From a virus: a DNA stretch of 40,171 bases. Location of the stretch: UHGV virus genome UHGV-0154679; one strand, 5' to 3'. Below are positions 2,039 through 18,027 of the stretch, one piece after another. Positions within the stretch are counted from its first letter, which is position 1. Every line of letters starts with the position of its first letter. The position numbers and the translations under genes were made by a program. The notes below the pieces were generated by a model, which saw nothing but the letters and a program-made list of their open reading frames with translations, searched no databases and was not told the origin of the DNA.

Positions 2039-2167
2039 ATGTCAAAAGTAAATGTTTTGATTTTTTCAGCAATTGTTGGCTTTGGTTTTACTGCCGGAGT
2101 GCAGATTTATATTACGTGGGAAAAAATCATCAACTACGCATGGAGTTGTTTTATTAAGTGAGGTAAG
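2039..2167 (+). CDS. Possible small membrane peptide (42 aa)
   Basis: ATG 2039 gives MSKVNVLIFSAIVGFGFTAGVQIYITWEKIINYAWSCFIK; one hydrophobic helix; stop immediately precedes the next gene's SD/ATG. Below the track's size cut-off. Confidence 0.25.
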
Positions 2168-2168
2168 T

Positions 2169-2462
2169 ATGTGGAGAGGTAATAATCATGGCAAAAGCCA
2201 GATGATACTTACCGAATATAAGCTAGACCACAAAACCAATAAATCACGCTCAGTATATTTGCTCCGGCACAATAGCCGCGTAAGAAATACCGTGCTGGAA
2301 CAAAATCTGACAGTTGAAATGGATAATTGCGGGGGATTCAAGCCAACAATTTCGCTTGATGATTTTCCTCGTGGTTTAAGCGAAAGAGAAGCAATGCTGA
2401 AATTAGCAGAATGGCTACAAAGATTAAGCATTGCTATTGAAGATAACTGGTCTGAACCTTAA
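2169..2462 (+). CDS. Hypothetical protein (97 aa)
   Basis: SD GAGGTAAG before ATG 2169 (internal Met of track ORF 2073-2462). Confidence 0.4.
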   Translation: MWRGNNHGKSQMILTEYKLDHKTNKSRSVYLLRHNSRVRNTVLEQNLTVEMDNCGGFKPTISLDDFPRGLSEREAMLKLAEWLQRLSIAIEDNWSEP

Positions 2463-2468
2463 ATTTAT

Positions 2469-2843
2469 ATGATGACACTAAAACATTTTCTTGACCGCCC
2501 ATTATGGGCGGCAGCCGCAGGCTATGACTTTAATTATATGGATTGCATGTCTTGTACTGCCAATGCATACGACCATTCGTTCATCCTGCTGTTTAATTCT
2601 TTAAGAATATTGCCGGAAACAGAAGTTGGAGAGCTTCATTTATGGCTATTGGGCTTTATCGCGGCTGTCGTTGGTATTGCTGTATGGCCTTTTATTTTCT
2701 GGCTGGTGGCTGTTGTAGTGTGGTTTAAGTGCAAGACATACCGGAAAAAGTATTTCTTAGGTGATGGAATGACTGATATTGCCAAAATGAACATTGAAGA
2801 ATGGACTAAGGAATGTGAAAAGAAATGGCGCAAAAAGAAATGA
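2469..2843 (+). CDS. Hypothetical membrane protein (124 aa)
   Basis: Hydrophobic core LWLLGFIAAVVGIAVWPFIFWLVAVVVWF. Confidence 0.4.
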   Translation: MMTLKHFLDRPLWAAAAGYDFNYMDCMSCTANAYDHSFILLFNSLRILPETEVGELHLWLLGFIAAVVGIAVWPFIFWLVAVVVWFKCKTYRKKYFLGDGMTDIAKMNIEEWTKECEKKWRKKK

Positions 2844-3469
2844 CCAGAATCACTGAAGAGCGCATATCAGAGATTATTTCCCGTATCGAAATGTATGGTC
2901 ACGGTGCTGGATATACGGCAGATGAAGTATTGGAAATAGCCCAGCAGATGCTGGCCTTGAGACAAAAAGAGCAACATGAAAGTAATACGTGTAGATTGAA
3001 TTTTGAGCATTGGCTGGAACAGCAACGCGGAAAAATCGATGTGGACTGTGGTTGTGTGTCCACTGAAACATTCATGCACTGGCTGTGGGTAGCTTACGAG
3101 GCTGGCAACTATCCGGATATTCCGGATAGTTCGGTGCCAGCACCAGGAAAGGGCGTCACCGGTGAACGTATCCGAATTAAGCCGCATGTTTATCGCGAAC
3201 TGGTTAACCGTCTCCACGATACAGCGATCAAGTGTGCTGGCACCCAGCAATTACGAGAAAGAATTAGCCGTGTTTTGGGCGACGTTATTACACCAGATCA
3301 TCATAAACAAGCCGAGAAAAGTGGCCTGGAAAGGTGTCACCTTGAGGCGGCATTAAACATTAAGCCGGGGCATACGCTTGGCATTATTGATGCACTATTG
3401 GTTCATAAGATGGCCAGGGCTTTATTGCCGCTGGTGGATGCTGGCGATACAAGCGAGGGTGAAGTATGA
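2825..3469 (+). CDS. Hypothetical protein (214 aa)
   Basis: Long ORF in the same-strand gene array; start uncertain (ATG 2825 or 2840). Confidence 0.5.
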   Translation: MAQKEMTRITEERISEIISRIEMYGHGAGYTADEVLEIAQQMLALRQKEQHESNTCRLNFEHWLEQQRGKIDVDCGCVSTETFMHWLWVAYEAGNYPDIPDSSVPAPGKGVTGERIRIKPHVYRELVNRLHDTAIKCAGTQQLRERISRVLGDVITPDHHKQAEKSGLERCHLEAALNIKPGHTLGIIDALLVHKMARALLPLVDAGDTSEGEV

Positions 3470-3828
3470 GAGTTGCAGATCACATCAAACACCTTGAAAG
3501 AATTATCGAAAACGGTGAACTCTTAAGAGATCAGATGAGACGCACGGCAGAAGTCAGAGAGGCGATAATCCGCAGTCAGGCTGGTAAATTAAAGCAATTA
3601 TCAGAGATTAACGCGCTATACAAGAACAGACGTAACCGGGCGGCGCTGCGGCTTCAGAAAGCACGTAATGAAATTAAAGTGGTGGAGGCAAAACTGAAAA
3701 AACAGATTCAGCGTTACGATCAGCAAGATGCTTTTTATGCCGCCATCAAGGCGGCTGCTAATGAAATAGGCATCTGGAAGTTGCTGGTGGAGAAAGCAAA
3801 GACGAAGTTAAATGCCAACGAAAGCTGA
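3466..3828 (+). CDS. Hypothetical coiled-coil protein (120 aa)
   Basis: ATGA overlap with the upstream ORF; SD GAGGGTGAAG; charged helical sequence. Confidence 0.5.
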   Translation: MRVADHIKHLERIIENGELLRDQMRRTAEVREAIIRSQAGKLKQLSEINALYKNRRNRAALRLQKARNEIKVVEAKLKKQIQRYDQQDAFYAAIKAAANEIGIWKLLVEKAKTKLNANES

Positions 3829-4457: not shown

Positions 4458-5277
4458 GGCACTGTTGCAAATAGTCGGTGGTGATAAACTTATCATCCCC
4501 TTTTGCTGATGGAGCTGCACATGAACCCATTCAAAGGCCGGCATTTTCAGCGTGACATCATTCTGTGGGCCGTACGCTGGTACTGCAAATACGGCATCAG
4601 TTACCGTGAGCTGCAGGAGATGCTGGCTGAACGCGGAGTGAATGTCGATCACTCCACGATTTACCGCTGGGTTCAGCGTTATGCGCCTGAAATGGAAAAA
4701 CGGCTGCGCTGGTACTGGCGTAACCCTTCCGATCTTTGCCCGTGGCACATGGATGAAACCTACGTGAAGGTCAATGGCCGCTGGGCGTATCTGTACCGGG
4801 CCGTCGACAGCCGGGGCCGCACTGTCGATTTTTATCTCTCCTCCCGTCGTAACAGCAAAGCTGCATACCGGTTTCTGGGTAAAATCCTCAACAACGTGAA
4901 GAAGTGGCAGATCCCGCGATTCATCAACACGGATAAAGCGCCCGCCTATGGTCGCGCGCTTGCTCTGCTCAAACGCGAAGGCCGGTGCCCGTCTGACGTT
5001 GAACACCGACAGATTAAGTACCGGAACAACGTGATTGAATGCGATCATGGCAAACTGAAACGGATAATCAACGCCACGCTGGGATTTAAATCCATGAAGA
5101 CGGCTTACGCCACCATCAAAGGTATTGAGGTGATGCGTGCACTACGCAAAGGCCAGGCCTCAGCATTTTATTATGGTGATCCCCTGGGCGAAATGCGCCT
5201 GGTAAGCAGAGTTTTTGAAATGTAAGGCCTTTGAATAAGACAAAAGGCTGCCTCATCGCTAACTTTGCAACAGTGCC
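4458..5277 (+). mobile_element. IS26: IS26 (IS6 family), complete 820-bp copy
   Basis: 14-bp terminal inverted repeats GGCACTGTTGCAAA (4458-4471) and TTTGCAACAGTGCC (5264-5277); internal ORF is the IS26 transposase; flanked by 8-bp direct repeat AATAATAG. Confidence 0.95.
4521..5225 (+). CDS. tnp26: IS26 transposase Tnp26 (234 aa)
   Basis: Protein begins [60 protein letters not shown], recognised as IS26/IS6-family DDE transposase. Track ORF 4503 trimmed to ATG 4521. Confidence 0.95.
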
Positions 5278-13344: not shown

Positions 13345-14376
13345 ATGTCCAATTTACTGACCGTACACCAAAATTTGCCTGCATTACCGGTCGATGCAAC
13401 GAGTGATGAGGTTCGCAAGAACCTGATGGACATGTTCAGGGATCGCCAGGCGTTTTCTGAGCATACCTGGAAAATGCTTCTGTCCGTTTGCCGATCGTGG
13501 GCGGCATGGTGCAAGTTGAATAACCGGAAATGGTTTCCCGCAGAACCTGAAGATGTTCGCGATTATCTTCTATATCTTCAGGCGCGCGGTCTGGCAGTAA
13601 AAACTATCCAGCAACATTTGGGCCAGCTAAACATGCTTCATCGTCGGTCCGGGCTGCCACGACCAAGTGACAGTAATGCTGTTTCACTGGTCATGCGACG
13701 GATCCGAAAAGAAAACGTTGATGCCGGTGAACGTGCAAAACAGGCACTGGCGTTCGAACGCACTGATTTCGACCAGGTTCGTTCACTCATGGAAAATAGC
13801 GATCGCTGCCAGGATATACGTAATCTGGCATTTCTGGGGATTGCTTATAACACCCTATTACGTATAGCCGAAATTGCCAGGATCAGGGTTAAAGATATCT
13901 CACGTACAGACGGTGGGAGAATGCTAATCCATATTGGCAGAACGAAAACGCTGGTTAGCACCGCAGGTGTAGAGAAGGCACTTAGCCTGGGGGTAACTAA
14001 ACTGGTCGAGCGATGGATTTCTGTCTCTGGTGTGGCTGATGATCCGAATAACTACTTGTTTTGCCGTGTCAGAAAAAATGGTGTTGCCGCGCCATCTGCC
14101 ACCAGCCAGCTATCAACTCGCGCCCTGGAAGGGATTTTTGAAGCAACTCATCGATTGATTTACGGCGCTAAGGATGACTCTGGTCAGAGATACCTGGCCT
14201 GGTCTGGACACAGTGCCCGTGTCGGAGCCGCGCGAGATATGGCCCGCGCCGGAGTTTCAATACCGGAGATCATGCAAGCTGGTGGCTGGACCAACGTAAA
14301 TATTGTCATGAACTATATCCGTAACCTGGATAGTGAAACGGGGGCAATGGTGCGCCTGCTGGAAGATGGCGATTAG
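13345..14376 (+). CDS. cre: Cre tyrosine recombinase (343 aa)
   Basis: Translation MSNLLTVHQNLPALPVDATSDEVRKNLMDMFRDRQAFSEHTW...MVRLLEDGD is recognised as Cre along its length; adjacent to loxP. Confidence 0.98.
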   Translation: MSNLLTVHQNLPALPVDATSDEVRKNLMDMFRDRQAFSEHTWKMLLSVCRSWAAWCKLNNRKWFPAEPEDVRDYLLYLQARGLAVKTIQQHLGQLNMLHRRSGLPRPSDSNAVSLVMRRIRKENVDAGERAKQALAFERTDFDQVRSLMENSDRCQDIRNLAFLGIAYNTLLRIAEIARIRVKDISRTDGGRMLIHIGRTKTLVSTAGVEKALSLGVTKLVERWISVSGVADDPNNYLFCRVRKNGVAAPSATSQLSTRALEGIFEATHRLIYGAKDDSGQRYLAWSGHSARVGAARDMARAGVSIPEIMQAGGWTNVNIVMNYIRNLDSETGAMVRLLEDGD

Positions 14377-15734: not shown

Positions 15735-16376
15735 ATGGATAAGAAAATATGCGTTGTTTCGATGAGCGTCGGCAAACCGGCGTCAATGACTGCTGCATGG
15801 ATCAACAATGAGCTAATAATGGCTGAGCGGACCAGCTACCCTGAACGCCGCCGCGATATGGAACTCCAGCTGCTGCGCGAATTGCGAGAAAAAGAGGAAA
15901 AGGGTTTTATCGTGCTGGTGGAAGAGGAAAACAGCTTTATTACTGGTCGAGTTGGCCAGCGTGTAAGGTTGCGCGATCCCTTCATGAACGGCAGGCCGGT
16001 ACTAATTGAGGCAATGCAGATTTATAAGGAGCTGGAACGCCAGAAAGCAATCAAGTTACCGCGCAAGGAATCCGGCAAATACATCCTCCACCAAAGCATC
16101 TTCGATTCCGAACACGATAAAAAAGGCGATGAATTTTTCAACATCAACTGGAGCGAAATAACGACAGAGCATGTTCTGACGTTACTATGTTGCTTTGCGA
16201 CGGAATACAACAACGTTGCCAGCGCCGACTACATCAGGGCAATGGCTGGAGAAGTTGAGGCACGCCAGGAACCATCGTTACTAAGCCCTCTGATTAACAT
16301 AATTCGCGGGACCCAAACGCTGGCACAAAAACAGGTGCCTAAGGGAGTATTAACAGGAAAAGGAAATTATCTATAA
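15735..16376 (+). CDS. Protein at the mat (particle maturation) position (213 aa)
   Basis: ATG 15735 with GTAGGGGG SD (internal Met of track ORF 15588-16376); name by synteny only. Confidence 0.45.
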   Translation: MDKKICVVSMSVGKPASMTAAWINNELIMAERTSYPERRRDMELQLLRELREKEEKGFIVLVEEENSFITGRVGQRVRLRDPFMNGRPVLIEAMQIYKELERQKAIKLPRKESGKYILHQSIFDSEHDKKGDEFFNINWSEITTEHVLTLLCCFATEYNNVASADYIRAMAGEVEARQEPSLLSPLINIIRGTQTLAQKQVPKGVLTGKGNYL

Positions 16377-16432
16377 ACGTCAATGCATTAGGGTATACTT
16401 CTCCGTAGAACTATAAGTAAATGGAGTAAGTA

Positions 16433-17737
16433 ATGAGCGAGTATATAGAAATTGCCTATGCAGCGGCTACACATAGGCTGTGCTTTCTTACAGGCACTGG
16501 ATTTTCAAAGGCTGTTTCTGATGATAAAGCCCCAAGTTGGCAATCTTTATTGGAGCAACTGTGCGGTTTATTGAAGGATGGTGACTCACTCAAAGAGGAA
16601 TTATTTCCTGATGGAAAAGCAAAAGACCTTAGCCTTGAAGAAGCTGCTCAGGTTATTGCACTAAAACTTATACTTTCGGGGGAAAATATTTACCAAGAGA
16701 TTGAGAAAATCATAGCCTCAATCGAACTTGATCCATCAATTGAATATATTCAAGACTTTTTCAAAGAAAACACATTTAAAGTAATTACGACAAATTATGA
16801 CAAGTTAGCAGAAAAGCTGGCTGGAGAGAATCGAACTTGTACAATCACCCCCGGCCTGCCAATTCCAAAATATAATTGTGAGGTTAAAGTCTACCATGTT
16901 CACGGTTCTATAGACTCCCCATCAGACATGGTTGTTACTAGCGAGGATTATTTCAGATTTATAAATGGTAATTCTTACTTTTCTAATAAACTAAGCACAG
17001 TTCTACATGAAAACACTATTGTTATCCTTGGCTATTCTCTAAGTGACGCGAACCTAAAGGCTATTATAAATGAATATAAGGTATTTTCACGGGACAACGT
17101 AATGTCCTCCAATATTTTCCTTGTTTCCCGAGGGGAACTATTGCAACCTATTAAAGATTACTATTTTTCCTGCTATGGGGTTAGGGTTATAGATAAAACA
17201 GAGGTATCTGATTTCTTTAGAAAACTTAACGATAAAATTCCAGAAGCAAAAAAAATAAAAGACAAATTGAGGCACTCAATCAAATCGGTAATAAAAAACG
17301 GAAGAGAGTATAAAATAGAGTTCTTGAAGCTAGAGGATTCTTTTTATCATATCATTTCCTCCATTTCATCATCTGGATATAGCTGGAATAATGAAAATGT
17401 ATTAAATGTTTTTTGTAATATAATAGATAAAAAAATAGAGCTTACTAAAAAGCCTGGCGCATGGGAGCAGTATGAACACCTGGCAAAATGGCTTATTTAT
17501 TTCGGTAGTTTATTTGAAGTAAAAGGAACCAATTTTGAGAAAAAATACATACATGCGGTTGAACACTCAATGACTTATATGAATAAACCTTACGAAACAG
17601 GCTACTCATGGCGAGCATATCTAGCCTGGAAAACAAAATGGCCTTCACTGACAGCATCTAACCGCTCTCTTATTAAGAATGAGATGGAAGATATCCCGCT
17701 ACAACAGATTCACGATATTGTATCTAAGTTTATATAG
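16433..17737 (+). CDS. SIR2-like (SIR2_2-type) domain protein, 434 aa, candidate NAD+-depleting defence effector
   Basis: Motifs LCFLTGTGFSKAV (Gly-rich loop), VITTNYD (N121) and VYHVHGS (H155/H157) in SIR2-like order and spacing; C-terminal region of about 170 aa is Trp/Tyr-rich and unassigned; gene is visibly AT-rich compared with its flanks (not computed); SD GGAG 9 nt upstream. Confidence 0.7.
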   Translation: MSEYIEIAYAAATHRLCFLTGTGFSKAVSDDKAPSWQSLLEQLCGLLKDGDSLKEELFPDGKAKDLSLEEAAQVIALKLILSGENIYQEIEKIIASIELDPSIEYIQDFFKENTFKVITTNYDKLAEKLAGENRTCTITPGLPIPKYNCEVKVYHVHGSIDSPSDMVVTSEDYFRFINGNSYFSNKLSTVLHENTIVILGYSLSDANLKAIINEYKVFSRDNVMSSNIFLVSRGELLQPIKDYYFSCYGVRVIDKTEVSDFFRKLNDKIPEAKKIKDKLRHSIKSVIKNGREYKIEFLKLEDSFYHIISSISSSGYSWNNENVLNVFCNIIDKKIELTKKPGAWEQYEHLAKWLIYFGSLFEVKGTNFEKKYIHAVEHSMTYMNKPYETGYSWRAYLAWKTKWPSLTASNRSLIKNEMEDIPLQQIHDIVSKFI

Positions 17738-17745
17738 TATATTTA

Positions 17746-17774
17746 TCTCCGGCCTAATCTCCCTAGGCCGGAGA
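17746..17774. terminator. 9-bp stem hairpin TCTCCGGCC...GGCCGGAGA between convergent genes
   Basis: Sits between the SIR2-like gene stop (17737) and the minus-strand ORF stop (17779). Confidence 0.45.
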
Positions 17775-17778
17775 GTTC

Positions 17779-18027
17779 TTAATCAGCATTCAGGAGCAAT
17801 GCGTTATCTATGATGATCTGCTCCCATTCTTCGAATGCCCGATCGCGGACGCCCTGGGGAACACTGTTAGTTTTGAAATCGACGACCGTACGCCATTTCC
17901 CGTCCGGACGGTACATGCGCAGAGCTTTACTTCCCCCTTCCCTGCGCACCTCAACGTTATGCTTGTCAGCAAACTCTTGTAATGCTCGTAGCGTCCCATG
18001 CTTTACTGTGTAGTATCGCTTTTTCAA
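17779..18027 (-). CDS. Small protein at the lxc/bof position (82 aa)
   Basis: 82-aa ORF downstream of darB and its 146-aa neighbour; ATGA-coupled; name by synteny and size only. Confidence 0.4.
   Translation of the reverse strand: MKKRYYTVKHGTLRALQEFADKHNVEVRREGGSKALRMYRPDGKWRTVVDFKTNSVPQGVRDRAFEEWEQIIIDNALLLNAD

Follow-up and report, generated by a model that had tools for sequence, protein, structure and literature searches.

What is a lone SIR2-like protein doing in the interval where phage P1 carries its res-mod genes? The question is raised by UHGV virus genome UHGV-0154679, a stretch of 40,171 nucleotides (hereafter the window, meaning the whole stretch that was analysed) with the gene order of a P1-like phage-plasmid. 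Between its backbone genes mat and lxc, a single open reading frame (ORF) encodes a protein of 434 amino acids, in which an N-terminal SIR2 domain is followed by an all-helical C-terminal domain (CTD). The SIR2-CTD gene is real, well defined and widespread and, judging from its sequence and that of its relatives, it plausibly encodes a single-protein NADase defence with a novel sensor-like domain. The reading that we favour, and hold to be probable, is that of a one-protein abortive-infection system, in which the helical CTD would restrain the SIR2 NADase until an infection cue appears, most likely a phage protein, upon which nicotinamide adenine dinucleotide (NAD+) would be hydrolysed via N121 and H157.

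Three motifs mark the N-terminal part, namely a Gly-rich loop LCFLTGTGFSKAV at residues 16-28, VITTNYD at 117-123 (with N121) and VYHVHGS at 153-159 (with H155 and H157). The Pfam family SIR2_2 (PF13289) matches residues 117-253 with an E-value of 2.1e-23 and 83.4 bits, for a cutoff of 24.5, over positions 3-141 of the 141 in the profile. An AlphaFold2 (AF2) model computed with 55 homologues (predicted local distance difference test, pLDDT, of 85; predicted template modelling score, pTM, of 0.82) features an alpha/beta domain at residues 1-255, mostly with pLDDT values >90, and an all-helical region at 258-434. The NAD+ site is predicted to comprise the G21-T-G23 loop, N121 and H157. The nearest solved proteins by sequence are all defence NADases, namely SeThsA (7uxt, E=8e-10), DSR2, BcThsA and KomC, and a Foldseek search of the PDB retrieved DSR2 (E=5e-11), ThsA and KomC, with TM-scores of ~0.7 against SIR2-only chains. 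By chain numbering H157 falls opposite H171 of DSR2; given the spacing of 38 residues, N121 corresponds to N133.

Conservation across the family points to the same residues. In an alignment of 39 members with identity down to 24%, T120, N121, Y122, H157, G158, Y173, Y182, G200, Y201 and D205 are invariant, and G21, G23 and H155 are nearly so. From this invariance we conclude that the catalytic machinery is under selection. The initial annotation of this stretch, made from the letters alone, had described a 434-amino-acid ORF at 16433-17737 with the three motifs, and all positions are as it gave them; Pfam, Foldseek and the 39-member alignment likewise bear out the SIR2 fold and the catalytic residues that it proposed, so that the outcome it had named as fatal, an N-terminal domain lying outside the SIR2 fold, is the opposite of what both profile and structure searches returned. 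Its list of catalytic residues needs one amendment: N121 and H157 stand, the latter aligning with H171 of DSR2 and with the His of ThsA, whereas H155 is near-invariant and is not the aligned catalytic residue.

The CTD is 179 amino acids long and contains six of the seven Trp of the protein together with 10 Tyr, which brings its Trp and Tyr content to 8.9% versus 5.9% in the SIR2 part. Its description as a Trp/Tyr-rich C-terminus without a nameable domain was accurate: no Pfam family scored above threshold over the CTD, no SLOG or Macro domain was detected in the protein, and Foldseek gave no match to the CTD below E=0.29. When modelled alone, the domain reaches a pLDDT of 88.5 and folds into nine helices. 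A CTD profile searched against 1.84 billion representative proteins yielded 96 matches; the full-length ones are all 406-480 amino acids long with the domain at ~255-435, and SIR2_2 was present in each of the eight divergent full-length matches that were scanned. Since the matches all fall within the SIR2-CTD architecture, we regard the CTD as a family-specific module that is never associated with another effector. A cluster of conserved residues, namely W344, Y347, W353, S379, S392, W393, W399, N410 and R411, emerges from the family alignment (A1). Helical-repeat-like forms are typical of protein-binding scaffolds, and it is for this reason that we designate the CTD the presumed sensor or regulatory part.

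The position of the gene is defined with equal precision. The window displays the order cre (13345-14376), cra, ref, mat, SIR2 ORF, lxc (- strand), ulx and darB, and P1 (NC_005856) has mat, res, mod::IS5 and lxc. When the locus was compared with P1, RCS47, SJ46, JL22 and others, homology to P1 was found to stop at the mat stop codon (16376) and to restart at the lxc stop codon (17779), so that the span 16377-17778 is exactly cargo. The slot named in the initial annotation, that of the P1 res-mod system, is hence correct to the nucleotide. The annotation had also considered that the gene might be a conserved part of the P1 backbone; it is missing from P1, P7, RCS47 and SJ46, and is cargo. Its GC content is 35.5%, compared with 50.7% in the flanking P1 genes. 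The ORF starts with ATG, preceded 7 nucleotides upstream by GGAG, and the intergenic stretches on its two sides, of 56 and 41 nucleotides, leave no room for a second ORF.

The mat-lxc interval has other occupants. It contains res-mod (EcoP1I) in P1, CapRelSJ46 (a RelA/SpoT protein of 373 amino acids) in SJ46, a 315-amino-acid PIN_12/PIN_8 protein in JL22 and a split RelA/SpoT gene in vB_EcoM-673R5. The interval of RCS47 is empty, and that of MH422554 spans ~1.2 kb devoid of annotated genes. Each cargo has its own, differing hairpin immediately before the lxc stop codon, as seen by comparing the window with loci L011, L012 (JL22), L013, L015 (P1), L016 (SJ46) and L027 (RCS47). The site thus occupied by res-mod, CapRel, a PIN protein and two allele types of the SIR2 gene (A and B, described below) behaves as a cassette hotspot comparable to those of P2 and P4. 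The same region of P1 is already in the literature as a low-GC variable hotspot, under the names RD-1 and 'variable region 1', and CapRelSJ46 of phage SJ46 is an experimentally validated one-protein sensor-effector. With regard to the borders of the site, the 3' end of mat (window 16200-16376) shows 76-91% identity among P1-like elements versus 93-98% on the lxc side, and this much greater divergence suggests that the left recombination breakpoints lie inside mat.

Does the protein act alone? A homologue search returned 657 clusters, of which the top 120 are all full-length (423-465 amino acids), at 53-61% identity; their hosts include Vibrio, Halomonas, Marinobacter, Pseudoalteromonas, Klebsiella, Pantoea, Pseudomonas and Delftia, among others. 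Genomic neighbours were first compared by BLASTP for the immediate neighbours in five contexts, and later for 25 loci, in which all ORFs of at least 60 amino acids within 3 kb were clustered. No gene other than those of the P1 backbone recurs across these 25 contexts, on which ground a two-gene system was rejected, and the gene is stand-alone as first proposed.

The settings in which the homologues reside are those of defence genes. Besides the P1 RD-1 slot, an E. coli homologue adjoins int at one end of a lambdoid prophage, and a Klebsiella homologue follows the primase gene of a P4-like satellite, a position that we take to be the satellite hotspot of Rousset et al. 2022. Others adjoin Gabija in P. 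putida and both a type I restriction-modification (RM) system and GmrSD in Marinobacter. The Halomonas homologue is found in an island with HNH, HsdR-N, DUF87 and STAND genes; the DUF87 gene is 2.6 kb away, with three genes between, and this association is not repeated in other contexts. Two further observations concern individual loci. The P. putida island with Gabija also has a DUF4917 gene (L009 13556-14566) ~4 kb downstream, which may belong to the same defence island. In Stutzerimonas, a gene for a NERD-UvrD helicase (L026 6110-7972) ends 29 nucleotides before the SIR2 homologue, which is followed by a DUF2971 gene; this is the sole context where an operon partner looks possible, and the arrangement is not repeated elsewhere.

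The gene exists in two divergent allele types in the same slot. The window harbors type A; type B, with 57-58% protein identity to it, was found on three P1-like contigs of IMG/VR and corresponds to clusters P0003, P0004 and P0006, the last of which alone holds 324 member sequences. The 56-nucleotide leader differs at one base between the types, and the first codons are common to both. Between the types, mat and lxc share 95-100% of their nucleotides; identity drops sharply at the start codon of the SIR2 gene and is regained at the lxc stop codon. At the protein level, identity is 63% in the SIR2 part and 50% in the CTD. Within type B, L055 and L041 share ~97% nucleotide identity in the N-terminal half and 65-77% over the CTD region, a drop that reveals a mosaic gene. 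Such divergence and swapping of the CTD fit what one would expect of an immune sensor domain. Among type-A alleles, the ratio of non-synonymous to synonymous substitution rates (dN/dS) is 0.12-0.20 in both domains, which indicates that the protein is functional and maintained. At L038 3509-4809, L043 6001-7303 and NC_017653.1 6608-7911, the gene has a length off by 1-4 nucleotides and no through-translation, owing to a frameshift that made it a pseudogene or else to an error of assembly.

Prevalence was estimated in 5,426 complete E. coli genomes, using the lxc-ulx backbone as a marker of P1-like elements. This backbone was present in 699 genomes (~13%), and the SIR2 gene in 70 as type A and in 64 as type B; together the two types thus occupy ~134 of the 699 genomes with a P1-like element (~19%), nearly always on plasmids of ~92-107 kb. 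PLSDB contains 124 matching plasmids, where the gene is annotated as 'SIR2 family', RefSeq/PGAP calls it 'SIR2 family NAD-dependent protein deacylase', and the corresponding PHROGs entry, phrog_7567, is of unknown function.

How might these pieces work together? As exchangeable cargo of the mat-lxc (RD-1, res-mod) hotspot, the gene would shield the lysogen, and hence the prophage, from other phages. The CTD would act as a switch that keeps the SIR2 enzyme off in uninfected cells. Once the infection cue is met, most probably by direct binding of a phage protein, the CTD would release or assemble the enzyme, and the N-terminal SIR2 effector, by hydrolysing NAD+ via N121 and H157, would starve both the infected cell and the phage. 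DSR1, DSR2, ThsA and SIR2-HerA all follow the same abortive-infection logic of NAD+ depletion, and the sensor region of DSR2 binds the tail tube protein. Support for our proposal comes from the domain identity, the conservation of the catalytic residues, the fixed two-domain architecture, the lack of a partner gene, the purifying selection and the location in defence hotspots. From there we infer that the protein is an autoinhibited NADase, what triggers it and that it protects against phages.

A more ambitious version of this proposal, which we put forward tentatively, is that of a 'mini-DSR', the smallest self-contained SIR2 immune receptor. Here a family-unique helical module of ~180 residues would itself recognise a protein of the phage and thereupon allow NAD+ to be destroyed. 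P1-like phage-plasmids would exchange whole alleles as well as segments of the CTD at the mat-lxc cassette site, with the leader staying fixed, thereby changing which phages are excluded by their lysogens. If true, the evolution of specificity in one-protein immunity could be studied in a sensor-effector pair that is natural, compact and reprogrammable.

Several points weigh against the favoured abortive-infection reading. The CTD is HEAT/ARM-like, with a likeness to generic solenoids only, and its role as a sensor is argued from architecture. Signs of positive selection on the CTD were confined to one allele pair (a dN/dS of 0.97 versus 0.15) and were not significant for pooled polymorphism (p=0.33), and a few copies of the gene are frameshifted. 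Expression raises a further difficulty: the gene lies 56 nucleotides 3' of mat, a gene transcribed in P1 from late promoters or ones under C1 control, and a standard scan detected no + strand promoter upstream of the SIR2 gene. The scan missed a TTAACA-N16-TATAAA candidate because its -10 hexamer ends in A; this is the sole match in the window, and a match arose in 4 of 100 shuffles. SJ46 has TTAACA-N16-TATAAT upstream of CapRel in the same register, and the activity of CapRelSJ46 was obtained with expression from 100-200 bp of native upstream sequence. On the side of the literature, no functional description of the SIR2-CTD family was found in the full text of PMC and bioRxiv (subscription-only papers being outside this scope). 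Lastly pFR88, a lone SIR2 cloned by Rousset et al. 2022, appears among their 'additional tested systems' and not among the validated ones; it belongs to a different family and warns that a lone SIR2 is no guarantee of a phenotype on a standard phage panel.

Other explanations must be weighed against these data. One is that the protein is an orphan ThsA-like effector, whose CTD binds a small-molecule second messenger instead of detecting the phage on its own; the messenger would come from a sensor whose gene lies elsewhere in the host or prophage, e.g. a TIR protein. Among solved SIR2 domains, that of a ThsA is indeed nearest in sequence (7uxt, with the E-value given above), PADLOC ThsA models match at E=9e-18, and the conserved Trp/Tyr/Ser/Asn/Arg cluster of the CTD could line a ligand pocket. 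These matches, however, concern the SIR2 core only (118-222), with neither SLOG nor Macro, and the CTD is a helical repeat rather than a nucleotide-binding fold. Furthermore, no TIR or other partner recurs in the 25 contexts, and the gene travels between elements on its own, so that an effector in need of a distant sensor would become separated from it. We consider this explanation unlikely.

We are just as sceptical of the idea that the gene is a decaying or inert passenger, i.e. a SIR2 protein now devoid of its partner or of its function that hitch-hikes in a recombination hotspot. It would account for the frameshifted copies (including NC_017653) and for the fact that pFR88, the sole comparable lone SIR2 tested, was not reported to be active, but it is at odds with a dN/dS of 0.12-0.20 in both domains, with a full-length architecture kept at 24-60% identity in many genera along with invariant catalytic residues, and with the maintenance of two allele lineages in ~134 complete E. 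coli genomes.

The deacylase name given by PGAP and the regulatory nature of the neighbours mat and lxc would agree with a regulatory sirtuin, namely an enzyme that acts by NAD-dependent deacylation or ADP-ribosylation on a protein of the host or of P1, to the benefit of the phage-plasmid, perhaps within its lysis-lysogeny or maturation circuitry. The catalytic Asn and His are common to deacylases and NADases and therefore do not discriminate. What makes this explanation quite improbable is the rest of the protein and its distribution. Pfam reported SIR2_2 alone, with no match to the classical sirtuin family (CobB/Sir2), and the characterised members of SIR2_2 are known as defence NADases. No four-Cys zinc module was found, the protein having 6 Cys, none of which is conserved family-wide in the 39-member alignment. 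The gene is cargo and not backbone, and its distribution extends to unrelated elements and to defence islands on chromosomes. The RefSeq name is hence probably a misnomer.

Very improbable, finally, is a factor for counter-defence or competition between elements that destroys NAD-derived immune signals or sabotages the NAD-dependent defences of the host during P1 infection: the gene adjoins the Dar anti-restriction genes ulx and darB and phage enzymes acting on NAD-derived messengers are known, but homologues are found on bacterial chromosomes, with RM, Gabija and GmrSD as neighbours, as well as in a P4-like satellite, the P1 slot is otherwise filled by defence systems, and we know of no anti-defence protein with a SIR2_2 fold.

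The features of the locus and the type B copies are collected in the following table.

Coordinates of the SIR2-CTD locus in the window and of type B copies on other contigs
Feature	Position	Strand	Basis or remark
SIR2-CTD gene, entire candidate system	16433-17737	+	434 amino acids plus stop; full-length match to phrog_7567
SIR2_2 (Rossmann-like) N-terminal domain, residues 1-255	16433-17197	+	Pfam, AF2, Foldseek
All-helical CTD, residues 256-434	17198-17734	+	family-specific; presumed sensor/regulatory module
Leader, 56 nucleotides, with Shine-Dalgarno GGAG	16377-16432	+	one-base difference between the two divergent allele types
Candidate sigma-70 promoter TTAACA-N16-TATAAA	16350-16377	+	overlaps the mat stop codon
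GC-rich 11-bp hairpin, likely terminator	17746-17774	.	part of cargo; between convergent SIR2 gene and lxc
mat, P1 backbone	15735-16376	+	left border of the slot
lxc, P1 backbone	17779-18027	-	right border of the slot
Type B copy	L041 6001-7305		
Type B copy	L055 3882-5183		
Type B copy	L058 6001-7302		

Elsewhere in the window, PADLOC returned no match for ten further ORFs searched for other defence genes. Upstream of the phd/doc region, an ORF at 4503-5225 encodes an IS26/IS240-type DDE transposase (DDE_Tnp_IS240, E=6e-49) within a GC-rich patch (55%), suggestive of an insertion into the P1-like backbone. The segment 2000-4500 is of low GC content (38-43%) and has several small + strand ORFs (2073-3828) that match neither Pfam nor PADLOC; it corresponds to a block of hypothetical and ead/Ea22-like genes in related plasmids, and is possibly a further region of cargo.

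If active, the SIR2-CTD protein would be a widespread factor, not taken into account to date, in how susceptible clinical and veterinary E. coli are to phages, with a bearing on the prediction of host range for phage therapy. With its 434 amino acids, it would rank among the smallest self-contained SIR2 sensor-effectors. Its presumed sensor domain, for which no relative is known, and the natural series of alleles (57%, 84% and 92-99% identity, and CTD mosaics) would make it a tractable model of how trigger specificity is encoded and exchanged.

How does the family relate to known systems? The initial annotation had called it possibly undescribed. This holds insofar as the literature search found no functional description, but the gene is present in PHROGs, PLSDB and E. 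coli annotations, and single-gene SIR2 candidates such as PDC-S25 have been catalogued; since lone SIR2 candidates in phage hotspots were thus already on record, the idea is less novel than it first seemed. PADLOC matches are limited to the SIR2 core, the best being PDC-S25 (E=4.7e-24), and the PADLOC PD-* models do not match the SIR2-CTD protein. The family is not covered by the DefensePredictor study or by Vassallo 2022. Its exclusion from ThsA+ThsB, SIR2-HerA, SIR2-APAZ/pAgo and DSR1/DSR2 in the initial annotation agrees with sub-cutoff NCBIfam scores and with these core-only PADLOC matches.

PDC-S25 is likewise a stand-alone SIR2_2 protein, of ~520 amino acids, found in E. coli phage and satellite hotspots, and is itself a candidate only. 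Membership of the window's protein was rejected: residues 101-247 alone match positions 128-278 of the 517 in the profile, and the C-terminal half is unrelated and the length different. By comparison, pFR88, from the P4 hotspot of E. coli M605, is a genuine PDC-S25 member (profile positions 10-342 with the available 399 amino acids, E=4e-85). The identity of our protein with pFR88 (Rousset et al. 2022, Table S2B) amounts to 30% over 116 amino acids, with an unrelated C-terminus, which places the two in different families. In Lamassu, the LmuA with a SIR2 effector (PADLOC PDLC03856, 433 positions) has a similar overall length; its match, with E=1e-13, covers residues 20-219. The SIR2 part alone matches, and no LmuB/SMC or LmuC gene lies nearby in the contexts examined, so assignment to Lamassu was rejected.

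ThsA of type I Thoeris (SIR2-SLOG; 7uxt, 6lhx, 8bto) possesses the closest SIR2 domain by sequence, a similar size (~480 amino acids) and a comparable two-domain layout of effector and regulator. It differs in its SLOG domain, which is absent from the P1-slot protein, whose CTD is a helical repeat. Membership of Thoeris was rejected, with a ThsA match restricted to residues 118-222 and no SLOG or Macro domain. No TIR/ThsB gene was found among the called neighbours of the homologues, and the flanks in the window are mat and lxc, with no HerA or short Argonaute/APAZ gene in the slot.

In overall design there is a likeness to DSR2 and to CapRelSJ46. DSR2 of B. subtilis (PDB 8k98, 8wkt and others) similarly joins, in a single polypeptide, an N-terminal SIR2 NADase to an all-helical HEAT-like region; its VITTNYD and VHG motifs align with the family, and it gives the best Foldseek matches. 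Membership of DSR1/DSR2 was rejected, with scores of 30 bits for NF041819 (Dsr2) and 21 bits for NF041818 (Dsr1) for cutoffs of 1400, and a length of 434 versus ~1000-1260 amino acids; the CTD showed no homology to the C-terminal sensor region of DSR1/DSR2. CapRelSJ46 differs by its effector, a toxSAS of the RelA/SpoT family and not a SIR2, and has no sequence similarity to the SIR2-CTD protein. It nevertheless occupies the same mat-lxc slot in the same orientation and is likewise a single gene that brings a terminator hairpin of its own; in its product the effector is N-terminal and the sensor C-terminal. CapRelSJ46 thus offers a functional precedent for a one-protein sensor-effector at this very site.

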